This document shows positions 336 to 43,834 of a stretch of 45,792 nt of DNA, piece by piece. Each line of letters starts with the position of its first letter. Position 1 is the first letter of the stretch. Made by a program: the position numbers and the translations under genes. Below the pieces are notes generated by a model, which saw only the letters and a list, made by a program, of their open reading frames with translations, had not been told where the DNA came from and did no database searches. The stretch comes from a virus (lineage: Duplodnaviria > Caudoviricetes): the IMG/VR virus record IMGVR_UViG_3300037423_000471, positions 1 to 45,792 of that record, one strand, 5' to 3'.

Positions 336-1618
336 TCCTTCACCTCAAACCGTTGTATAGCTCCGTTGAACCAAAGTTCAAAGTCCGCTACACCCGTTTG
401 TCTTCCCTTCTCGACGATGAAATCAATATGATCCTTGTTACCCTTTGCCTTGTCTTTATCGTTGTGAAGGAATATTACCATGTCGGCATCTTGTTCTATG
501 TTTCCGCTGTCCTTCAAGTCCGACAAAACAGGTCTTTTGTTCTTCCCACTCCGGTCATCAAACTTTCGGGACATTTGAGCCAACAGGATAATACTGCACC
601 CCAATTCGCGTGTAAGACGCTTCAAGTCTCCGGTTATTTCTCCGATAGCGTCAGACTTGTTTTGATTTTTCTTCATGTACAGTTTCACAAGTCCGAGATA
701 GTCGATCATTACAGCCCCTAGTTTGCCGTTTTCCCGCTTCCGTTGCCGACACTGTGAAACTATATGGTCATAGTCCATACGCGGCGTATCGTCAATGTAC
801 AGCGGTATTTCACACAATCGCTGTCTAGCCTTTTCGACTACGTTCTCCTGTTCACCTTGGAAAGAGTGCGTCATGATTGTTTGGAATGGTACTCCGCTCA
901 TATCAGCTAACATTCGGTTAACCAATTCCTCGCCGCTCATTTCCATACTGAACACTGGAACCGCCCCATAACCTTGCCTAGCTATGTTCCGACATGCCGT
1001 TAAGGAAAAAGCCGTTTTACCTGTCCCCGGTCTTCCGGCGATAACAATAAGTCGCTCCGTTCCTATACCCTTCATCCACTTGTCGATGTGACTAAATCCG
1101 AGTAAAGGGGAAATGTTCGGTTGCTTACTCTTTTCCTTCGCACTTACAACCGCTTCGGATATGTGCCGCATACGGCTTTCTCGTGAAGGGTTGAAACTGT
1201 TAAACAGCTCCGAAACCTTGTTCGTAAAAACTCCTATATCGCCGTTTTCCTTAGCTGCTGCTATTTCTTCTTTGATCCTCACGGCTATTGCGTCAGCATT
1301 ACGGTATAAACTTTGCTCTTTCACCCGTTCAGCATAAACCTTGGCTAAAAGTTTGTTGCCGCCTACCGCTCTTAGTTCACCTATGTAAGCAACTCCACCA
1401 ACTTCGTCGAGTTTGTTTTTCTCTCGGAGTATGTGAACCAATGTCCGAACATCATAAGAACCCTTGTCGAACAGATACTTTATAGCCTTGAACAATGTTC
1501 GATTTCGGGAATAGTACAAATCATCAGCGGTTAAAATGGTGTCTATGTCGTAGAATGTCTCAGGGTTATCAAGCAGAGCCGACATGACATATGATTCTGC
1601 TTCATCGTTATAATGCAT
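332..1618 (-). CDS. dnaB: Replicative DnaB-family helicase
   Basis: N-terminal EAESYVMSALL domain, Walker A GRPGTGKT, SMEM, IDYLGL, LAQMSR, LSDLKDSGNIEQDAD. Confidence 0.97.
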   Translation of the reverse strand: MHYNDEAESYVMSALLDNPETFYDIDTILTADDLYYSRNRTLFKAIKYLFDKGSYDVRTLVHILREKNKLDEVGGVAYIGELRAVGGNKLLAKVYAERVKEQSLYRNADAIAVRIKEEIAAAKENGDIGVFTNKVSELFNSFNPSRESRMRHISEAVVSAKEKSKQPNISPLLGFSHIDKWMKGIGTERLIVIAGRPGTGKTAFSLTACRNIARQGYGAVPVFSMEMSGEELVNRMLADMSGVPFQTIMTHSFQGEQENVVEKARQRLCEIPLYIDDTPRMDYDHIVSQCRQRKRENGKLGAVMIDYLGLVKLYMKKNQNKSDAIGEITGDLKRLTRELGCSIILLAQMSRKFDDRSGKNKRPVLSDLKDSGNIEQDADMVIFLHNDKDKAKGNKDHIDFIVEKGRQTGVADFELWFNGAIQRFEVKE

Positions 1619-1620
1619 GG

Positions 1621-2460
1621 TTACATGTTCTCCCCGAATGTCATCTGTTGCGCTTGCATTTTCAATTTTCTTCTTTCTTTTTCTCGTTCATCAGGATTAG
1701 GAATATTTTTATCTAAATCGGATATGCTTGTACTAGGTGTATAAGATTCGTGGTCTTTCCACCTGTCCTTATTCAAAAATGTAGCAGCGTTTTTGATGTA
1801 CTTCTTCTCCGTTCCTTCATCCTGAATCTGTTGTATATAATTTTTTAGTGCATTAAACACTGGTTCAGGTTCATTGTTCATTCGTTTGAGCATTGACTTC
1901 CAAGCTGATTCAGCATCAGGTCTCGATACTGATTTAGGATACATGTCCCAAAACTCAGCGAAGCGGTACAGAGTGTTTTTATTCTTTACTTCTTTACTAT
2001 CTTCTTTATTGGTCGTTTTGATGGTCATTCGCTGGTCGCTCTGCTGGTCGGAGAATAGGTCAAGCCCTTGCTGTATCAACGTTTTTTGCTGGTCGCTCTG
2101 CTGGTCGTTTTGATGGTCATTCGCTGGTCGCTTTTTGTTGTATTCTTCATAGTTCACCAACTTGTAAACTGTACATTTTCTATACTGTTTAACCTTGACT
2201 ATCATGGTATCTTTGACCAACTTTTCAATAAACCGTTTAAGTTTACCGTCCGATATATTCAATCGGCTTCCCCAACTAGGTCTACCAAAGATAAATTCGC
2301 CATACTTAACGGTAACTATTTCACCCTCATACATTTCCGTTAAAGGTTCTTCGGAATATCGAGCCAAGAGAAGCATTTCAGACCAACAATGAAAGTATTG
2401 CGAATCCTTATAAACCCAATGTTCCCTGATTCCGCGATCTAGCCCTAAGAAGTTTTTCAT
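1621..2460 (-). CDS. Phage replication initiator (replisome organiser)
   Basis: N-terminal wHTH (LDRGIREHW), internal iteron-encoded repeats, C-terminal FAEFWDMYPK...YIKNAATFLN; directly upstream of dnaB. Confidence 0.85.
   Translation of the reverse strand: MKNFLGLDRGIREHWVYKDSQYFHCWSEMLLLARYSEEPLTEMYEGEIVTVKYGEFIFGRPSWGSRLNISDGKLKRFIEKLVKDTMIVKVKQYRKCTVYKLVNYEEYNKKRPANDHQNDQQSDQQKTLIQQGLDLFSDQQSDQRMTIKTTNKEDSKEVKNKNTLYRFAEFWDMYPKSVSRPDAESAWKSMLKRMNNEPEPVFNALKNYIQQIQDEGTEKKYIKNAATFLNKDRWKDHESYTPSTSISDLDKNIPNPDEREKERRKLKMQAQQMTFGENM
2011..2132. repeat. Iteron array, probable replication origin inside initiator gene
   Basis: 30-bp GGTCGTTTTGATGGTCATTCGCTGGTCGCT at 2011-2040 and 2103-2132; GCTGGTCGCTCTGCTGGTCG at 2031-2050 and 2088-2107; TGGTC recurring every 12 bp. 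Confidence 0.75.
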
Positions 2461-2465
2461 ACGGG

Positions 2466-2645
2466 TTATTCACCCTCGTTTGTGGCTTTTTCAAGTTCCT
2501 CCACATCTTTAATCAAAACGTAATAACCGTGGTCGAGTGAAAGTTTCACAAAATCCGACGCTTCTTTCCAATTCGGGAAAGTATAATCCAATCCTTTGTC
2601 AGATAGTGTTCTTTTTACAACGATTCCATAGAAATTTTTTTTCAT
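2466..2645 (-). CDS. Hypothetical protein, 59 aa (MKKNFY start)
   Basis: GGGGAGG-rich RBS, ATGA overlap with upstream gene. Confidence 0.7.
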   Translation of the reverse strand: MKKNFYGIVVKRTLSDKGLDYTFPNWKEASDFVKLSLDHGYYVLIKDVEELEKATNEGE

Positions 2646-2824
2646 TCCTTCCCCTCCCCTCTGGTCTCCATCCACTCCTTAACCTTTTCCAAGTCAAAGC
2701 GTAGAATCTTTCCAGCTTGATAACGTGGCACACCTTGTTTCAGCCAGTTTTTAACGGTTCTCTCAGTTACTCCGAAAGCCTGTGCAATATCATCGATTTT
2801 CATTAGACCGTTATTTTGATTCAC
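2642..2824 (-). CDS. Xis/MerR-like HTH DNA-binding protein
   Basis: IDDIAQAFGVTERTVKNW...RFDLEKVKEW; GGAGGTG RBS. Confidence 0.8.
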   Translation of the reverse strand: MNQNNGLMKIDDIAQAFGVTERTVKNWLKQGVPRYQAGKILRFDLEKVKEWMETRGEGKE

Positions 2825-2846
2825 TGAAATTCACCTCCCGTTCACT

Positions 2847-2876
2847 AATCTAGCATAAATATAATAGACTCGTCAA
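2847..2876 (-). promoter_or_regulatory. sigmaA-type promoter for the replication operon
   Basis: Minus strand TTGACG-18-TAGATT with TG extension. Confidence 0.65.
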
Positions 2877-2909
2877 CACATATTTTCCGCAAAGTGGAAT
2901 ATTTTTCGC

Positions 2910-2940
2910 ACATGCTTCATAGGGGATCATGGGCAAACTA
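2910..2940 (+). promoter_or_regulatory. Possible sigmaF/sigmaG (forespore) promoter
   Basis: -10 GGGCAAACTA fits GGnnAnAHTR; -35 (ACATG) imperfect. Confidence 0.35.
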
Positions 2941-2960
2941 TATGCGGGAGGTGTTCATCA

Positions 2961-3095
2961 ATGGCTCGTGTGGTTTTTTTAACATCATTGTGGATATTAA
3001 ACGTTATGTTTTCTGGCTGCTTCGAGGATATTATTGAGCGCATGGATAAAATGGATCATGCTAGAAAATGGGATATAAAAAACCCCGCCGATTAG
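2961..3095 (+). CDS. Small putative lipoprotein, 44 aa (MARVVFLTSLWILNVMFSGC...), not in ORF track
   Basis: GGAGGTG RBS, hydrophobic signal with lipobox-like FSG-C at residue 20, ends in terminator. Confidence 0.6.
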   Translation: MARVVFLTSLWILNVMFSGCFEDIIERMDKMDHARKWDIKNPAD

Positions 3096-8764: not shown

Positions 8765-8792
8765 AAATAAAAACACCCCCATTCGGGAGTGT
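8765..8792 (-). terminator. Intrinsic terminator closing the ATPase operon
   Basis: ACACTCCC-gaat-GGGGGTGTTTTTATTTT. Confidence 0.8.
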
Positions 8793-8803
8793 CGTTGTAT
8801 TGC

Positions 8804-8911
8804 TCATATGATATGGAACACCCAGTGAAGAATGTTGCACACAATAGACATAGCGCATAATACAGCGGTCATGATCCAGAAGTTGCGGTCAAATATTTCT
8901 TTAGGTTTCAT
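8804..8911 (-). CDS. 35-aa single-TM peptide (MKPKEIFDRNFWIMTAVLCAMSIVCNILHWVFHII), not in ORF track
   Basis: AGGAG RBS right after ATPase stop; hydrophobic core; followed by terminator. Confidence 0.6.
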   Translation of the reverse strand: MKPKEIFDRNFWIMTAVLCAMSIVCNILHWVFHII

Positions 8912-8922
8912 TATCAGTTCTC

Positions 8923-11151
8923 CTATACGGTCATATTTACAATCAATGGGTTTAACCTTGTTTCGCCTACACGGAATATGCATATTGCATGACGTTGTTT
9001 TAGCTTCAAAGCTTCGTCAACGGTGAAAGGTGAGATTTGCTTTTTTAGCGAATTATAAGTTTCTTCCGACGAATTAAACAGTACATAATGCGGCCCCGCA
9101 TCCTTGATAATCTGCAATAACTTAGAATCGCCGCTGTTGAGTTGATCGAACGAATGAAAGAGCCAATAAAACGCGATTCGGTAAGCTCTAGATTCAACGG
9201 CGAGTTTCTTCCAAATGTCCGCGCTTCTTAGGTATCTGTGAGGCTCGTCGTAGAACACTGCGACAGGGAACATGTTATTTTCTTCTCTCAGGCTCATAGC
9301 TATGTCGAGTTTGAACGTCAAAAGATTTATGATTATGTCCTTTGCTTCTCTGCTGTTGAGTCGATCCGGTATATCAATAACCGTACACATGCCGCGCTTG
9401 TTGATTATATCCAGCATGTCAATTCCTTCCGTGGTATCCATACATGAGGCTAGGTAAGAATCATCCAAAATGATTGATAAACGGTTATAAATTGGACTTA
9501 ATATTTGCCGTTGCCTATCCTCCTTTTCCTTATCAAACTGCTGCAATGTTGATTTTGGCATTCCTTCGGGCATACTTTTAATAATTTCAGTTCGGTATGT
9601 CTTATCCTCGAATATTTTCATGATTTCGGCTATCCGTCCGGTCCTCATCCCATGTACAGCCGCTTTGAGAAAACGTGCTGTCTGTGCTCCTGCTTGGTCT
9701 GTGTTATCAGCTAGGAAATGCATGATAATCTGTGCTAGTCGGTTCCTTGCGCTGTGAGAATGAAGCACTTCTCGAAAGTCCAACCCAAGCAGAACTTCAC
9801 CAATTAAAAACCGTTGCCGCTTTTCAGGTGGGAGCATATCGGGGATGTACTTGTTCCAAACCTCCGACTTTTTAGGATCAATCAGAATAGCCGAAAATCC
9901 CTGTTCAACGAATTTTGCTGCTCGGTATGATGCAAAGAAAGTTTTTCCGGCATTCATACCACCGATAACACAAGTGGGAAGCGATAAAACATCGTGGTCA
10001 TTCGTTGGGAATGTTAAGTGTTTTTTGATTCGCTTGTATTCTACTGAGCCTGTGGGGATGCCTCCCTTCGTGAGTATTGCCGGGACTTCAATTTGACGCT
10101 CATCCATGCAATCAATCTGTTCATAGCGTTCCTGTAGGTACGCGCTTGGTAGTTCTGCCAGCCTACCCAATTCGTCATTGCTCATCTTGTTAGCGTCCCA
10201 GTTATAGCGGGTTAGCCATGATAAGCGGTGTGTGTTGAGTTCCTTCATGATGTGGGGTTTTAGCTTGTTGTGGTAGTCGTGCCGCTCTAGCTCGTTTTCG
10301 GCTGTGAGGTCATTGAACGAGTTCGCAACCGTCCGCATTATGATGCGTTGTCGTGTGGGGTCTGTGGAGTGTGCTGCTATGCGGATATGGCTATTGAAAA
10401 CGGGAAGTTTCGCTTTGTCTACGGTTCCTTTGCTCGGCCCTCCGTCTATCATCATCATACGTTTGTCATCGTCTGCGGTTGCTTTTGTTTTGTTGTCCGG
10501 TTCGCCTATAACCGTGTAAACCGTATCTAGAGCCTGTTGCAAAAGATTCGTGACTAACTCGCCAACACCTATAAAAACATCCTTCGTGCTTATCCGCTTC
10601 CGCTTTGGGGTTCTCCCTTTCCTAAACTCTTGATGTAACTTTTCCGCGTGGTCTTGCCAATCTAGGCGGCTTGTAGGCTCTGCACATATGCTGTACCGCG
10701 CTATGTCTCCATCTTCCAAGTCAGCTACAACCGAAAGGATGCTGTTAAGCGGCTCATGCTCTGTGCGCCTATCCGTCTTAATGGCGAACATGTCAGAGCG
10801 TCGATACTTCAACTCGCATACGTCTGAGGTCATCGGCATGATGGTTGGGAAAGCTGGGGAGAGTAGTTGCTGAATACTCGCCCCTTCCCACGTTTGAGCC
10901 ATCAACGAGACAACTTCCCGCTTCCATTCTTCGGGGAACGTTGCATAGAACCGGATCGAATCACGATCAATCATAACGTCCCACCAAAAATAGCCGGACA
11001 CCTTACCGCGTAACTTATCCACAGGACTTGTGTAAAATGTGGACAACGCTCGGAACATGTCGTGCACCTTCTTATTGTCCGTTGCCCGATCCGGTGTTAT
11101 CTGATATTGCACCATTTGAACTTGTTTTCCGTTCAGCAACTTAAAACGCAT
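8923..11151 (-). CDS. VirD4/VirB4/HerA-FtsK superfamily P-loop ATPase, 742 aa
   Basis: Walker A GGMNAGKT, IDPK, Walker B VAVFYDEPH, ESRAY...FHSFDQL; large N-terminal domain without clear TM. Confidence 0.85.
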   Translation of the reverse strand: MRFKLLNGKQVQMVQYQITPDRATDNKKVHDMFRALSTFYTSPVDKLRGKVSGYFWWDVMIDRDSIRFYATFPEEWKREVVSLMAQTWEGASIQQLLSPAFPTIMPMTSDVCELKYRRSDMFAIKTDRRTEHEPLNSILSVVADLEDGDIARYSICAEPTSRLDWQDHAEKLHQEFRKGRTPKRKRISTKDVFIGVGELVTNLLQQALDTVYTVIGEPDNKTKATADDDKRMMMIDGGPSKGTVDKAKLPVFNSHIRIAAHSTDPTRQRIIMRTVANSFNDLTAENELERHDYHNKLKPHIMKELNTHRLSWLTRYNWDANKMSNDELGRLAELPSAYLQERYEQIDCMDERQIEVPAILTKGGIPTGSVEYKRIKKHLTFPTNDHDVLSLPTCVIGGMNAGKTFFASYRAAKFVEQGFSAILIDPKKSEVWNKYIPDMLPPEKRQRFLIGEVLLGLDFREVLHSHSARNRLAQIIMHFLADNTDQAGAQTARFLKAAVHGMRTGRIAEIMKIFEDKTYRTEIIKSMPEGMPKSTLQQFDKEKEDRQRQILSPIYNRLSIILDDSYLASCMDTTEGIDMLDIINKRGMCTVIDIPDRLNSREAKDIIINLLTFKLDIAMSLREENNMFPVAVFYDEPHRYLRSADIWKKLAVESRAYRIAFYWLFHSFDQLNSGDSKLLQIIKDAGPHYVLFNSSEETYNSLKKQISPFTVDEALKLKQRHAICIFRVGETRLNPLIVNMTV

Positions 11152-11233
11152 ATGACACCATCCATTCCCCTTCGTAGTTGACTACAAAATATTGATATGC
11201 GCCAACCCTTACATAAATCCATTCATACAGCAT
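11141..11233 (-). CDS. 30-aa aromatic-rich micro-protein (MLYEWIYVRVGAYQYFVVNYEGEWMVSYAF), not in ORF track
   Basis: AAGGGTG RBS 7 nt upstream; overlaps stop of upstream gene and start of ATPase. Confidence 0.5.
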   Translation of the reverse strand: MLYEWIYVRVGAYQYFVVNYEGEWMVSYAF

Positions 11234-11513
11234 GATAAGCCACCCTTACCAACACAAAGCCAACAAACGATTTTATACCGCGTTCCATCCACCTATCACG
11301 GCCCGTTATCGCCATTAAGATACAGAACATCGACCAAACCAATAAACCCTCGGACAGCATAGGTAAACCGATGTGTTGCACCCAATAGATGCCCTTATTG
11401 ATTAGTGCCATCGTTACGGCTTCTGTCGCCTTCTCTGTACCCTTTTCAATTAACTCTGGTATCAATGCACCATCCGAGGGAGCAAGCCCATTAGCGGTCA
11501 TTACAAAGCGCAT
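11223..11513 (-). CDS. Membrane protein with two-TM hairpin (pilin-like)
   Basis: Hydrophobic segments flanking TGRDRWMERG loop; GGGGT RBS. Confidence 0.75.
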   Translation of the reverse strand: MRFVMTANGLAPSDGALIPELIEKGTEKATEAVTMALINKGIYWVQHIGLPMLSEGLLVWSMFCILMAITGRDRWMERGIKSFVGFVLVRVAYHAV

Positions 11514-11525
11514 GCGCCATACCCC

Positions 11526-11996
11526 CTAATTAGCGGTTGCCGTGACAATATCCACAATCCACGGAACCCATACGAGCAGGATATAAGCAATCGTGCTGGC
11601 TTTCATCCGTTGAATCCCCTGTTGAAACTTACCGATCAACGCTTCTACGCCACCCCATAACATCATGATTGCATAGATTTCATGCCCGAATGCCTTAATG
11701 ATTTCGCGTATAGGTTCAGTTGCCGTTCGGAGTCTTGCCGCAAAATCTCCCGCGTTTGCCGCTTGTTGTGCCATTACAGGAACCGCATCATGAGCCGATG
11801 TAAAGTCCATAGAAGCCGCCAGAGCCGGATCAACATGGAATGCGAAGGTTACGCCAGCCAATACCGCTGCGGAAGCGTACAGTGCTTTCTTAATGCGTCT
11901 AACGGTGTCTTGGTTTTTGACGGTGAATGTGATTTTAACGGGTTCTTGCTTCTGCTTGAAATATCCCCAAGGTAAAACCTCTACTTTTTGAGCCAT
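11526..11996 (-). CDS. TrbC/VirB2 pilin-like membrane protein (MAQKVE start)
   Basis: Signal-like segment ending PALA-A, then amphipathic helix and two TMs joined by GKFQQGIQRMK, as in VirB2-type pilins; AAGGGTG RBS. Confidence 0.65.
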   Translation of the reverse strand: MAQKVEVLPWGYFKQKQEPVKITFTVKNQDTVRRIKKALYASAAVLAGVTFAFHVDPALAASMDFTSAHDAVPVMAQQAANAGDFAARLRTATEPIREIIKAFGHEIYAIMMLWGGVEALIGKFQQGIQRMKASTIAYILLVWVPWIVDIVTATAN

Positions 11997-12122
11997 CGAT
12001 AAACACCCTTTCCCACTTTTATGATTGAACACGTAGCAAAAGCGAAAGCACCCAATAAAAACAAGGTTGAAATCAGAATAATCGCCGCCTTTCGTGGCAA
12101 CACTAAATCTCGGAGGTGAAAA

Positions 12123-12467
12123 TCACCATGTGCGCTTGGCTTGCTCTCGGTTGCGTTGTTGCATACTGCTATTTTTATGATTTGGGGCTATAAATGCTGT
12201 ACCTAAACCTTGATTCCCTATTACCGAGTTTACTTTTGGGGCTTGCTGTGGTTCTGTGCGCTGAACGTCAGCGGAATTGATTGGAACATCTACCACTTGA
12301 ACTCGCTTAGTCGTGCGGATACCGAGCATGAGCCTGAGTCCGTCTCTAGCCATATTCGCTAGTTGTTCGCCATTCATACCGTCGATAGCTGCTTTCAAGT
12401 CTGCATCTACTTCCCGGAGCCGGAATTGGAAAAATGTCCGTTCTTTCTGTGCTGCTTTCCGTTTCAA
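12123..12467 (-). CDS. Ribbon-helix-helix-like DNA-binding protein
   Basis: FFQFRL strand followed by two helices (DADLKAAID, LANMARDGLRLML); GGAGGTG RBS, TTG start. Confidence 0.6.
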   Translation of the reverse strand: MKRKAAQKERTFFQFRLREVDADLKAAIDGMNGEQLANMARDGLRLMLGIRTTKRVQVVDVPINSADVQRTEPQQAPKVNSVIGNQGLGTAFIAPNHKNSSMQQRNREQAKRTW

Positions 12468-12515
12468 GGTGTATCACCTCCCGAATGTCTGTTGTTATCT
12501 TGTTGATTACAATAC

Positions 12516-12544
12516 ATCCTATGGGCGAATACCTAAAATGATGC
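12516..12544 (-). promoter_or_regulatory. sigmaE-like (mother-cell sporulation) promoter P1
   Basis: GCATCAT-14-CATAGGAT versus consensus (G/T)CATAnT-14-CATAcanT. Confidence 0.65.
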
Positions 12545-12572
12545 ACGTACAAATAAAAAAGAGGTGAAAAAT

Positions 12573-12824
12573 ATGCAAAGGCTTGTCATTGGTCTAATCA
12601 TCGGTTTTGTGGTCGGTAACTATCCGCTAACTATGGGCATGGAAGGCTTCGTATTAGCCGCGTGTAGCCTCTTAACAGGTTTGGTGCTGTCTAACTATTA
12701 CCGGAAGGTTAAAGCGGCTGTACGGGGCTTTGTGTTCGTTAGATGGGGAGGTTATGAACTTAGGAAGGTGCAACCACATGAGGATAAGGTTGAGGTGTTG
12801 GAGCATCGGAGGAAAGCGAAGTAA
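12573..12824 (+). CDS. Small two-TM membrane protein (MQRLVIG start)
   Basis: GAGGTG RBS; two hydrophobic helices and basic tail. Confidence 0.6.
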   Translation: MQRLVIGLIIGFVVGNYPLTMGMEGFVLAACSLLTGLVLSNYYRKVKAAVRGFVFVRWGGYELRKVQPHEDKVEVLEHRRKAK

Positions 12825-12914
12825 TCACGATGGATTACATTAAGTATGTCGGTTTGTCGTCCTTTCGCTACGGCTAAAGCCTTTGAAAGCGAAAGGCTAT
12901 GCTACCATGATTCC

Positions 12915-12942
12915 ATTGTATGTGTGTGAGCGTGAATGATGC
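12915..12942 (-). promoter_or_regulatory. sigmaE-like promoter P2
   Basis: GCATCAT-13-CATACAAT; shares 22/24 bp of upstream/-35 sequence with P1. Confidence 0.6.
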
Positions 12943-12952
12943 GTGTACAAAT

Positions 12953-12982
12953 AAAAAACCTCCCGCGCGGGGAGGTCTATTT
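12953..12982. terminator. Intrinsic terminator (probably bidirectional)
   Basis: AAAAAACCTCCC-gcgcg-GGGAGGT. Confidence 0.8.
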
Positions 12983-30351: not shown

Positions 30352-31391
30352 TGTTTGCTGAACTCCCTATAATCGGATTGCAAGTCAACCCATCGCTGAG
30401 AATTAGCCTCTTTCATACGCCTAAAGCCCGATAGCGTCTTGGGTGCGTCTTCGCCTAGTGCGAGTTTGTACCGCTCCCATTGTTGCCTATCTAATCGGAG
30501 TCGCCGCTTGTCTGCTTGGTCTTTGTTGTAGCGTTCGATTGCTGTTTTAGAGCGTGTCTCCATATCAAAGGAGCGGTTACTATAAGCCAAGTCACTGTTA
30601 AAATCGTCTGCAAGAGCGGGAACATATGGCGCGATGACGTGTCTACAATTAGGGTGGATATTTGCATAGCCGCCACTATAAGCAATAGAAAGTGAAGGAA
30701 AGTCAGAACTTTTACCACTGATACTATACACCCTTCCTTGGTACACCGCGCATATAGCGCACGTGGTGGCGTGTGAACTCATCTTAACGAGGTCATAGCC
30801 GTTATTCGTCAATTGGTTCATGGTTCCAGTGTTGGTCGCTTCTCTCGTGGTAGAACGTGCAACAGTAGCCGCGTAAGCATCAAGAGAAATCATTCTGCCG
30901 CGCTTATCACGAATACCGTTTAAGCCCTGATCCACGAGCTTTTTCACGAGTGCCTTTTTCATTTCGCGCACCGTTGAACCTGTGGCGAACTTCTGCTGTG
31001 CTGCTTCTAATCCGGCTTGTCTAACTGAATCCTCGATCTGTCTGCCCACGAATGAAACGCCGCTGAACAACATCGATTGAGTATTAGCCATGAGCAACGC
31101 GATTACACGCGCGTTCAGCCTCGCAAATGTCTCAGGAGTGTTAACACTCACACCCATACTTTGGAGGGCTGTAAACGCCTCCTGTGCGCCCATACCGTAT
31201 GCCTCGTTGATAGCTTCCATTGCCCACGTAGCGGAATAGGCGTTAAGCTCCATTAGCACCTGTCGAACCTGTTTGAGCAACGTTTCTTGATACCATGTCA
31301 CGCTGCCACGAGCTTCTTTGTAGGCTATCAGGTTAATCAGCGTTTGTTGTGCTTCTTGGTATACTTTTATTAAGCGTTCCTCATTGGTCAA
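30348..31391 (-). CDS. Minor capsid / head morphogenesis protein
   Basis: SSH...CAICAVYQGRVYS, HPNCRH. Confidence 0.88.
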   Translation of the reverse strand: MTNEERLIKVYQEAQQTLINLIAYKEARGSVTWYQETLLKQVRQVLMELNAYSATWAMEAINEAYGMGAQEAFTALQSMGVSVNTPETFARLNARVIALLMANTQSMLFSGVSFVGRQIEDSVRQAGLEAAQQKFATGSTVREMKKALVKKLVDQGLNGIRDKRGRMISLDAYAATVARSTTREATNTGTMNQLTNNGYDLVKMSSHATTCAICAVYQGRVYSISGKSSDFPSLSIAYSGGYANIHPNCRHVIAPYVPALADDFNSDLAYSNRSFDMETRSKTAIERYNKDQADKRRLRLDRQQWERYKLALGEDAPKTLSGFRRMKEANSQRWVDLQSDYREFSKQ

Positions 31392-31888
31392 AAGAACCCA
31401 CTCCGAATAGTTAAAATCTTACCCGCGTACCGTTCACGGAACTTGCACACGTTTATTCCTTCGGGATTTCCTGCGGTGTGTACCATGTACGTATCATCAA
31501 GAGCCATGCCGACATGATCCGCGACACCTGTTTTATCCCTGTCGATGATAACCAAACACCCGAATGTAGCAACGTCCACCGCTTGCCCTAATGCGGCTTG
31601 TTGTCGGCTCGTGCGCGGTAACTTTACTCCCGCTTCGCTGAATATCTGCTGCATAAGCGACGAACAATCAAAGGCTTTATCGTTCACCCACTCAGCACCG
31701 AATTTATACGGTACTTTGATTGCTTGGAAGCGTAAAGCGGCTAGGAGTGCAATATTAGCCGTTTGAGTCTTTCTCAGGTCTATGATAAGGCCGTTTTGGT
31801 TCTCTATGGTTGAAGTAGCCAATGCGTTGTATGATTCAAGGGAATGTGCTTCCGAAATGGCTTGTTGTAATGTGTCAATTATGCTCAT
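31388..31888 (-). CDS. NlpC/P60 (C40) peptidase
   Basis: PYKFGA, FDCSSL, LPRTS, DHVG, VHTA (Cys-His-His). Confidence 0.88.
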   Translation of the reverse strand: MSIIDTLQQAISEAHSLESYNALATSTIENQNGLIIDLRKTQTANIALLAALRFQAIKVPYKFGAEWVNDKAFDCSSLMQQIFSEAGVKLPRTSRQQAALGQAVDVATFGCLVIIDRDKTGVADHVGMALDDTYMVHTAGNPEGINVCKFRERYAGKILTIRSGFF

Positions 31889-33825: not shown

Positions 33826-34209
33826 TTATTTTTCCTGCACAATAACAGTAGCGTTATAAATGACTGTGCGCTTTCCGTTTAGGTCAAAAAGAACCTTGTT
33901 CCCGTATTCATTTTCTTTAACATCGATTTTACCGTCATATGTTTTGATCAACTTCCCAGTCATGTCGTACACTTCAACAGTTCGCGTTAACCCGCCTGTT
34001 GTGTTGGATGTGAAATCCTTTAATGCCCTTGCTCCCTGTGCGGTTATGGTAAAGTGAAGAATGATAAAAATAATGCCGATGATAAGCGTGGAAAAAGAGC
34101 CGCCTTTGATCCACACATGCGTTTTTTCATCACTATAAGCACTAACGCCCCAAATAACAAAACCAACGATAGACATAACTATAAAAAGAGCAGCTAAACC
34201 CGAAAACAT
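33826..34209 (-). CDS. Two-TM membrane protein inserted between TerL and portal
   Basis: Two N-terminal TMs, GGLTRTVEVYD..G domain; GGAGGT RBS. Confidence 0.75.
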   Translation of the reverse strand: MFSGLAALFIVMSIVGFVIWGVSAYSDEKTHVWIKGGSFSTLIIGIIFIILHFTITAQGARALKDFTSNTTGGLTRTVEVYDMTGKLIKTYDGKIDVKENEYGNKVLFDLNGKRTVIYNATVIVQEK

Positions 34210-37511: not shown

Positions 37512-37579
37512 TGGACAGTGAGCGGATTTGAACCGCTGTTCGTGGGTTCGTTAGTCCCACGGCTTACCGGAACACCGTC
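37512..37579 (-). ncRNA. tRNA-like element 1 (D-arm-less)
   Basis: Acceptor GACGGTG/CACTGTC, T-arm AGCGG-TTCAAAT-CCGCT, central arm CGTGGG-ACTAACGAA-CCCACG, no D stem. Confidence 0.65.
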
Positions 37580-42742: not shown

Positions 42743-43834
42743 TTAACTCGTTGTACGATATGGTAATATCAATTGTACCGCGTTCTCGTCGTCACCTTTG
42801 AGTATGATCGGGTTCATGGAGCCGTTGTAGCATATCCGCACCTTATCACCGTCCACAGCTTTCAACGCTTCTAAAGCGTATTCTACGTTAAAACTCGCTG
42901 TCACTTCACCCGTATCAACGCTAACCTCTAACGCTTCGCTTGCCTTGCTTCCTTCGTTCGCGGACGATATTTCCGCTTCTTTACCTGATGCCGATATTTT
43001 CACGATTTTAGCCTTGTTATCTTTGGCGACTATGCCCACTCTTTCTAATGCGTCATGTAAGCCCCGTAAAGCCACCGTCACGACACTTTTATAGTCAGTC
43101 GGTATAAGTTTACTTGTATCGGGGTAAGAGCCTTCTAGCAGGCTTGTAGCGAGCGTAGCGCGGTCTGTGATAAATACCGCTTGGTTGTTGGCGAAAATAA
43201 TATTTACTTCCTCGTCATCATCCACAATGTCCGATACTGCTTCAAGGGATGAAGCCGGAATGGTTGCTTGGAATGGTTCGGTCATACCTTTGACACCAAC
43301 TTTCAAACTAGAAAGCCTGTGCCTATCGCACCCTGTGGCGGTTATCTCGTTTTTGAATGCTTGGAACAACACTCCTGTTAAAACTGGCATATTCTCTGTT
43401 GTCGCACAAGCGAAGGTTGTATTCTTGATAAGCCGCTTTAAGTCCGATCCTTCCATGCTTATCGAGTTTCCGCTTGGTTCCTGCTGCTTCGGGTACATTT
43501 CATCGTCTAAGCCGGATAACTCGAACTTGCTTTTACCGCTCTTGATGGTTACTTGCGTACCCTTCGCGCTAATCTCTAGCGTGTCGCCAACCTTGCGGAC
43601 AATCTCGAATAGTTGTTTAGCGGGGATAACTACCGCGTCTACGTCAAAAGTGGTTACACCGTCCGATATTGTCGTTTTGACGTACATCGTACCATTTCCA
43701 GCCGTTAGGAAAATTTGCCCTTGTGATACCTCGAACAATATCCCGTTCAACACTTCGACGGTCTTACTCTTCGCCACCTTCGATAGTTGAGCAAGTGGCG
43801 TTAAAAGTTGCTGCTTGTCTATCGTGATTTTCAT
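42743..43834 (-). CDS. dnaN: DNA polymerase III beta sliding clamp
   Basis: 363 aa; VIPAKQLFEIVRK, PVLTGV, DRHRLS, LLEGSYPD, FNVEYALEAL, LILPYR. Confidence 0.95.
   Translation of the reverse strand: MKITIDKQQLLTPLAQLSKVAKSKTVEVLNGILFEVSQGQIFLTAGNGTMYVKTTISDGVTTFDVDAVVIPAKQLFEIVRKVGDTLEISAKGTQVTIKSGKSKFELSGLDDEMYPKQQEPSGNSISMEGSDLKRLIKNTTFACATTENMPVLTGVLFQAFKNEITATGCDRHRLSSLKVGVKGMTEPFQATIPASSLEAVSDIVDDDEEVNIIFANNQAVFITDRATLATSLLEGSYPDTSKLIPTDYKSVVTVALRGLHDALERVGIVAKDNKAKIVKISASGKEAEISSANEGSKASEALEVSVDTGEVTASFNVEYALEALKAVDGDKVRICYNGSMNPIILKGDDENAVQLILPYRTTS

Follow-up and report, generated by a model that had tools for sequence, protein, structure and literature searches.

In phage SPP1, the products of genes 31, 31.1, 31.2 and 32, which also occur in phage GBK2, have been proposed to form a transmembrane translocon of unknown role, and genes 31.2 and 32 are non-essential in ordinary laboratory growth, with deletion mutants in existence (Godinho et al. 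2018, PMC6316719, available text). The genes orf200-207 of phage 0305phi8-36 and gp27.3-27.9 of SPO1 have been described as a laboratory-dispensable 'DNA translocation operon', and cell-to-cell transfer in biofilms was proposed as its role (Pathria et al. 2012, PMC3357382, available text). The gene set itself is already known: it is the 'DNA translocation' cassette of SPP1 (gp31-32) and 0305phi8-36, for which no function was given in print. In the present study we describe such a cassette in the IMG/VR virus record IMGVR_UViG_3300037423_000471 (45,792 nucleotides (nt); hereafter the window, meaning the whole stretch of DNA that was analysed). Taking predicted promoters and gene content together we infer, at a probability of roughly 0.55, that the cassette moves phage DNA out of the mother cell and into the forespore and is accompanied by an exclusion peptide made in the forespore.

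Four genes form the core of the cassette. They encode a ribbon-helix-helix (RHH) protein, a VirB2-like pilin, another membrane hairpin protein and a VirB4-like ATPase of full length. The SPP1 cassette has the same gene order, with RHH and small membrane proteins and a homologous ATPase. In the window, the counterparts of SPP1 gp31, gp31.1, gp31.2 and gp32 are, respectively, a CopG/ParR-like RHH protein of 114 amino acids (aa; 12123..12467, minus strand), a VirB2/TrbC-like pilin of 156 aa in which a two-helix hairpin follows a long leader (11526..11996, minus), a second two-helix membrane protein of 96 aa (11223..11513, minus) and a 742-aa VirB4-like ATPase with intact Walker A and B motifs (8923..11151, minus), which also corresponds to SPO1 gp27.4. 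A 30-aa open reading frame (ORF) that overlaps both its neighbours (11141..11233, minus) and a hydrophobic 35-aa ORF (8804..8911, minus) complete the six ORFs that an earlier, sequence-only reading had proposed as one operon. All six were found on the minus strand at the positions it gave. That description overlooked three further ORFs, at 12576-12824 (+), 12128-12193 (+) and 11981-12076 (-). The terminators it placed on either side are present as terminator-like hairpins at 12956-12978 (minus; it ends the upstream early genes and reads as a terminator on the plus strand too) and at 8772-8793 (minus; found in the terminator scan and closing the cassette), the scan having counted 6 such sites against a shuffle mean of 6.5, which is chance level.

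All five ATPase motifs named in the sequence-only reading are present, and K403, T404, D425, D635, E636, R655 and H666 are invariant among 22 homologues. The protein belongs to phrog_5156 (E 1e-160), matches SPP1 gene 32 by tblastn (E 3e-46), is 25.7% identical to gp32 over 97% of the query and agrees in size class and family with the SPP1 cassette (soluble, about 720-900 aa). The family numbers 292 clusters at 50% identity (E<=1e-30). A sequence search of the PDB with the ATPase gave no match better than E 0.47. The modelled ATPase (pLDDT 78) has an alpha/beta N-terminal domain, and Foldseek placed TrwK/VirB4 first (E 6e-16) along the whole length (~870 columns), at a low TM-score of 0.34 and a root-mean-square deviation (rmsd) of 15; TrwB and HerA aligned with the motor only. 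VIA likewise ranked VirB4 (4ag5) first, with Z 27.6 and rmsd 3.4 over 330 aligned residues of the motor domain, followed by DndH, a Legionella coupling complex, TrwB and HerA at Z 25-26. FtsK (Z 15.6) and TcpA (Z 16.2) lay far below VirB4, and the model does not show an FtsK motor fold with an N-terminal membrane anchor. From the mixed VirB4, VirD4 and HerA class first suggested, the full-length VirB4 fit and the similarity to HerA/VirD4-type motors stand; the SpoIIIE/TraB-like machine also envisaged fits worse.

Assignment of the 156-aa protein as VirB2/TrbC is suggested at the level of its family, in which T4SS_pilin is matched by 13 of 27 members and TrbC (VirB2) by 6 of 27 (E<=0.05). The window protein itself falls under the Pfam cut-off (T4SS_pilin, E 0.008), and its model gave no significant Foldseek match. 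It matches phrog_5422 and phrog_28964 (E 9e-9). A search of structures with the pilin profile yielded a designed coiled coil as its sole match, which was rejected. The pilin and the 96-aa membrane protein showed no detectable relatedness (hhalign probability 4.8%). The 96-aa protein is optional, being missing in some relatives, and has an Atlas match to an archaeal cluster (score 0.89) that is a lead only. The first gene was correctly read as RHH, its family profile matching CopG-family structures (E 0.0014); Plasmid_stab_B is matched by 2 of 17 family members.

Regions upstream of the first cassette gene were collected from 44 loci, which clustering at 70% ATPase identity brought down to 29 clusters; 155 upstream regions of the same loci served as controls. 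Operon starts were placed by hand, five being shifted upstream to a coupled gene on inspection, and the set excludes loci that had too little upstream DNA or no obvious first gene. The sigmaE pattern ATA-N16-18-CATAnnnT, pieced together from the available parts of PMC3789822 and PMC517825, occurred perfectly in 6/29 clusters versus 1/155 controls, and with at most one mismatch in 18/29 versus 28/155 (p 3.5e-6); the clusters are related, so that p-values here overstate independence. In 40 shuffles the means were 0.3 and 5.9, respectively. The sigmaK pattern, which has its -10 box in common with sigmaE, was weakly enriched (17/29 versus 41/155), and patterns for sigmaA, sigmaF and sigmaG showed no enrichment upstream of the 29 clusters. 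Unguided motif sampling, once terminator tails had been trimmed, recovered gGaATA..CATAtnaT; before trimming, the best modes were terminator T-tracts, and these were discarded. In leave-one-out scoring, 21 of the 29 clusters exceeded the control 95th percentile. The sigmaE motif is thus enriched across homologous operons, a check named by the sequence-only reading that came out in its favour.

The main window site, GCATC-N16-CATAGGAT at 12515..12545 (-), lies ~47 nt upstream of the RHH start, has one mismatch to the pattern and, when scored with a matrix built from the 28 other clusters without the window, ranks first genome-wide. A second sigmaE-like promoter had also been proposed; this site, GCATC-N15-CATACAAT at 12914..12943 (-), is a 24-nt direct repeat of the main one and is weak, with a 15-nt spacer, rank 15 and 11.3 bits. 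The reported absence of a sigmaA-like promoter before the cassette was borne out on the minus strand from 12470 to 12960, and a strong sigmaA-type promoter (11/12) follows the cassette at 8730-8702 (-), serving the replication genes. Host sigmaE is accordingly predicted from sequence to transcribe the cassette in the mother cell. Alternatively, what look like promoters could be repeated operators for the RHH protein, in a cassette with a vegetative task such as superinfection exclusion. The sigmaE motif does contain two CATA-like words, spaced by roughly two helical turns, and SPP1 genes 31-32 are listed as early. However, the motif is common to loci whose RHH proteins are very divergent (mean column identity 21%), it sits ~20-65 nt before the start and behind a terminator, a second and distinct sporulation consensus is found on the opposite strand, and the hosts are all spore-formers. 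We regard operators as highly improbable. By eye, terminator tails can be seen before the cassette in many relatives, and a small divergent helix-turn-helix gene often stands head to head with the cassette promoter (L015, L017, L027, L039 and L044).

The second consensus came to light in the gap between the RHH and pilin genes, which was compared among 32 representative loci after two near-duplicates had been dropped. In 16/32 of them a small hydrophobic ORF with a ribosome site runs antisense through this gap. The scan used a sigmaG-type pattern and one for sigmaF, GYATA-N14-16-GGnnAnAHTR, the latter taken from the available part of PMC11599450. One or the other occurred antisense, with at most one mismatch, in 13/32 loci versus 6/155 controls scanned on either strand (p 1.4e-7). 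This test was designed after the feature had been noticed, and a matrix was therefore trained on 16 loci and applied to the other clusters. Of the 16 held-out clusters, 6 scored above the 95th percentile of the null, where about 1 would be expected, and in five of these a micro-ORF follows the site. With the same matrix, trained on other clusters, the window site GAATA-N15-GGCAACACTA at 12076..12105 (+) ranks first in the 45.8 kb. It has one mismatch to the sigmaF consensus, sigmaF and sigmaG being indistinguishable at this site, and lies directly upstream of a hydrophobic 21-aa peptide (12128..12193, +; GGAGGTG ribosome site) resembling peptides of L044, L039 and L045. Host sigmaF or sigmaG is predicted to transcribe this peptide, and its size, hydrophobicity and promoter type make it a candidate entry exclusion factor.

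A forespore-type antisense promoter fits a job that spans two compartments, and it bears on a further explanation, namely that phage DNA escapes the doomed mother cell into neighbouring cells, a biofilm-type spread as in the published proposal of Pathria et al. (PMC3357382, available text). The conjugation-like parts are in keeping with such spread. So is the fusion of an N-terminal M23 peptidase to the second membrane protein in four clusters; in L067 it is taken from annotation, and in L031, L036 and L039 from what we take to be M23 motifs. The antisense promoter would then be unexplained. Moreover, most loci lack a wall hydrolase, and neither an adhesin nor VirB6 or VirB8 was seen; this would seem too little for crossing two thick walls. 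We consider spread to neighbours quite unlikely.

Homologous loci among viral contigs were recovered by an alignment search, a single-sequence search having returned nothing. All phage records with the ATPase come from spore-formers (94/94 at E<=1e-5 and 121/121 at E<=0.01), with names pointing to Bacillus, Geobacillus, Lysinibacillus, Brevibacillus, Alicyclobacillus and Clostridium, in addition to deep-sea thermophilic phage D6E. The plasmid records agree, 56/56 being from Clostridium, Bacillus, Alicyclobacillus, Thermoactinomyces or Laceyella. The capsid protein of the same phage, used as a control, gave 749 records in 56 name groups with many non-sporulating hosts. The proposed restriction to spore-former hosts therefore fits every named phage and plasmid record. 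Carriers include small tailed phages, SPO1-like phages and prophages. Among the 56 plasmids, 48 are typed as non-mobilizable and some are large Clostridium plasmids; the cassette may also serve plasmids. In a phylum-wide sample the ATPase homologue occurred in 4/401 genomes, which is uninformative on host range, and 1/10 distant homologues bears a taxon name. Sporulation-related genes were noted near the cassettes of some relatives, encoding a Spo0E-like protein and an H-type small acid-soluble spore protein (L062 4996-5139; L067 10284-10457).

The nature of the cargo was approached through partner genes. The pilin of a relative matches 38 phage records, 22 of which lie outside the listed ATPase matches, and 8 of these were inspected. 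An FtsK/SpoIIIE gene stands directly upstream of the pilin in 8/8, a relaxase-like or 'replication initiation' annotation occurs in 6/8, and the same RHH family in 5/8; forespore-type sites had no clean placement in these FtsK cassettes. In SPO1 the VirB4-type ATPase is accompanied by a relaxase and a partition gene. Because pilin and RHH travel with two FtsK-HerA-class motors and with DNA-processing genes, the cargo is probably DNA. A different possibility is that the mother-cell machine exports protein, or assembles a short filament of pilin at the engulfing membrane, and thereby alters sporulation (a stall, a change of speed or of the spore surface) with no DNA moved. A VirB4-type fold without coupling protein or relaxase is what such a machine might have, the cassette is retained in integrated prophages, and both promoter types are equally compatible with it. 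The company of pilin and RHH with FtsK and relaxase-like genes elsewhere argues the other way. So do the relaxase and the partition gene that accompany them in SPO1, and the lack of any conserved cargo protein in the cassettes. We judge export or filament assembly unlikely.

Partition genes adjoin the cassette in L004 (D6E; 1543-3009), L002 (SPO1; 1477-2914) and L014, and in D6E the partition gene is followed by a small one resembling the cassette RHH. It could be argued from such neighbours, present in SPO1, D6E and 0105phi7-2, and from the ParR/StbB-like character of the RHH protein, that the cassette is a tether only: its proteins would aid partition by holding phage DNA to the septal membrane, leaving its capture to host SpoIIIE or to closure of the septum. 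SigmaE is active only once the septum has formed, which is late for trapping, and a tether would have no need of a VirB4 ring and a pilin. This explanation appears decidedly improbable.

Transfer of phage DNA to the forespore is to our mind the most economical mechanism. Its basis is the four-gene set, the modelled VirB4-like fold and the confinement to spore-former hosts; the DNA transfer, its direction and an adaptor role of RHH are what we infer. A stripped-down machine resembling a type IV secretion system (T4SS) would be made in the sporulating mother cell and would bring phage DNA into the forespore through the thin double membrane. Host sigmaE would drive the cassette and host sigmaF or sigmaG the antisense peptide, no phage sigma factor having been found. 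The pilin-like hairpins would build the conduit and hold the soluble ATPase in place, and the M23 hydrolase, where present, might open septal peptidoglycan. RHH may bind phage DNA as autorepressor, loading adaptor or both. Since no relaxase was found here, the machine would transfer either double-stranded DNA or single-stranded DNA supplied by the phage's own replication proteins. The forespore peptide would block transfer when the spore already has the phage (entry exclusion); as its production would have to wait for a phage copy in the forespore, the machine would also idle in lysogens.

Several results weigh against this mechanism. SPO1 and seven other clusters fall under the control 95th percentile for sigmaE, and SPP1 genes 31-32 have been assigned by prediction to the early sigmaA promoter PE5 (PMC6316719, available text). 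On the forespore side, 10/16 held-out clusters are without a significant site, and SPP1 has the micro-ORF and a -10 box with a poor -35 box. The sigmaE matrix exceeds the null 95th percentile upstream of only 2/8 FtsK-type cassettes, which is no more than suggestive of a sigmaE promoter there, and one such cassette is in a record named Staphylococcus phage MVC_VPHSA1, which has a gene layout like that of Bacillus phage Anath with the FtsK gene in two pieces. VirB4-class ATPases serve pilus assembly as well as DNA movement. The earlier statement that no relaxase is visible is consistent with the absence of PF13814 from the genome, and PHROGs assigned no relaxase, coupling protein, VirB6 or VirB8 among the 68 window ORFs, other relaxase families not having been searched singly. 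With no VirB6- or VirD4-like gene seen in the window phage, and Replic_Relax in 1/44 carriers (SPO1), the channel and the processing of the substrate are left unexplained.

The sequence-only reading had also named as a check whether homologues are limited to phages without an integrase, and they are not. A tyrosine recombinase is encoded by 17/44 carriers and a serine recombinase by 10/44, 25/44 in all; since 25 of 44 carriers encode one, the cassette is no mark of non-integrating phages. Among 12 named isolates D6E alone has a recombinase, and 19/31 IMG/VR carrier records are classed as provirus, a class of record that may contain host genes. This too counts against a DNA pump: integrated phages would reach the spore with the chromosome, and a pump would be useful only when the phage infects an already sporulating cell. 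Temperate phages could use the cassette in just such post-septation infections, the exclusion peptide idling the machine in lysogens, which is argument and not data.

Should transfer into the forespore be correct, a large number of spore-former phages, both lytic and temperate and with SPP1 among them, would practise a kind of conjugation within one sporangium: injection after septation by a sigmaE-driven VirB4/pilin machine, exclusion by a sigmaF/G-driven micro-peptide, and hence an active, phage-encoded virospore route. We advance this wider generalisation tentatively, at somewhat short of even odds. Since its publication in 2012 the gene set has lacked an assigned function; two conserved predicted promoters of opposite compartments now tie it to sporulation. 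The mechanism is concrete and testable in the model pair SPP1 and B. subtilis. If true, it would explain why cassette genes are dispensable in vegetative plating, would perhaps reveal the smallest T4SS-like machine in bacteria, and would show how phages and related plasmids enter the bacterial 'germ line'.

A sense 31-aa single-helix membrane peptide (11981..12076, minus; CTG start inferred) directly precedes the pilin, and similar ORFs occur in L044, L039, L037, L045 and L036. The 30-aa and 35-aa micro-ORFs are present in the window as first reported; they have no counterpart in the nearest relative, L044 (ATPase 71% identical), where an unrelated 58-aa ORF takes the position of the former and nothing like the latter follows the ATPase. 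For this reason both look accessory, the 30-aa ORF being probably a translational coupler or an accessory. The divergent 82-aa ORF (12576..12824, +) has an N-terminal hydrophobic segment, a GAGGTG ribosome site, weak Pfam matches only and an upstream forespore-type site of rank 16 in the genome. Two copies of the 24-nt repeat flank this membrane ORF, and a mother-cell transcript from the second sigmaE-like site would be antisense over it. Different proteins of one cassette often share a short N-terminal motif, MRF-x-x...G in the window (11223-11513 and 8923-11151) and MIVKING-like or ETIKW-like elsewhere (L039, L058, L054, L031 and L001), possibly a docking or targeting signal. A riboswitch considered for the hairpin at 12830-12915 was dropped, as Rfam gave a sub-threshold tRNA-like match and a chance sRNA match only.

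The window is a whole circular phage contig of about 45.7-45.8 kb with a 127-nt terminal repeat; the record is classed as a direct-terminal-repeat virus, with a CheckV completeness of 73%. Head, tail, lysis and replication genes were assigned in the PHROGs scan of its 68 ORFs, among which no integrase or sigma factor was found, and Pfam profile searches detected no tyrosine or serine recombinase in the genome. A Cro-like regulator is present; integrase and partition genes were not detected. The lifestyle is read as lytic or carrier-state. The host is probably a member of the Paenibacillaceae, because the nearest named ATPase homologues (Gorillibacterium, 55%; Paenibacillus sp. J31TS4, 54%) and the RecT matches (Paenibacillus phages, 67/77) point there. 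No parS match was found in the window, and nine 0A-like heptamers were counted without a null model. PHROGs placed additional genes of the packaging block at 33826-34209 and 31388-31888; a membrane protein gene separates the terminase from the portal, and a minor-tail-like domain lies between the portal and head morphogenesis genes. A phage-encoded sliding-clamp-like processivity factor adjoins a DNA methyltransferase (42743-43834; PHROGs), and a tRNA-like element at 37513-37579 (-) scores 28.8 against an Rfam cut-off of 29 bits.

Compared with the published cassettes, the reading given here differs in its link to sporulation. The available text of PMC6316719 contains neither 'sporulat' nor a sigmaE or forespore promoter or an antisense peptide, and that of PMC3357382 contains neither 'spore', 'sporulat' nor 'promoter'. 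SPO1 gp27.4 is a homologue both of the 0305phi8-36 ATPase orf201 and of the window ATPase; the 0305phi8-36/SPO1 operon has a relaxase and an actin-like gene, whereas in the window that relaxase family is absent and the cassette has no such ORFs. The FtsK/SpoIIIE and replication-relaxation cassettes of Bacillus phages Silence, BV1 and 276BB001 share the pilin, and the RHH family in 5/8, and differ in the motor. The reports on Riggi (PMC3853051) and BigBertha (PMC3853046) describe, in their available text, host SpoIIIE pumping DNA into the forespore and leave the role of the phage cassette unknown or undiscussed. A link of the cassette to a sigmaE or forespore promoter was not found in the literature searched, which included few subscription papers. 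Conserved motifs predicted from sequence make its link to both sporulation compartments well supported.

Conjugative T4SSs (R388 Trw, Ti VirB) have, like the window, a VirB4-like ATPase with an N-terminal domain, the VirB2-like pilin of the window being a candidate counterpart, and the gene order resembles virB2-virB3-virB4. Unlike them, the window has no detected VirB6, VirB8, VirD4 or relaxase, a tailed-phage setting and predicted compartment-specific promoters. The archaeal Ced/Ted systems are also minimal, relaxase-free sets of two-helix pilins and a VirB4-like ATPase, and they move DNA between touching cells; in Ced there is a VirB6-like protein, CedA, and the system reacts to DNA damage, the DNA it imports being chromosomal (PMC11868833, available text). 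No CedA-like multi-pass protein is encoded in the cassette, whose largest membrane ORF, of 156 aa, has one hairpin after its leader. The cassette would work like a minimal T4SS or Ced but belongs to neither. Entrapment of the phi29 type depends on host partition sites and 0A boxes. Survival of phage DNA in spores has long been known, and the route described for it, through host partition sites, is summarised in PMC12991052 (available text). The outcome would be the same in the present case; in phi29-type entrapment the segregation machinery belongs to the host, whereas here a phage-encoded motor would act after septation.

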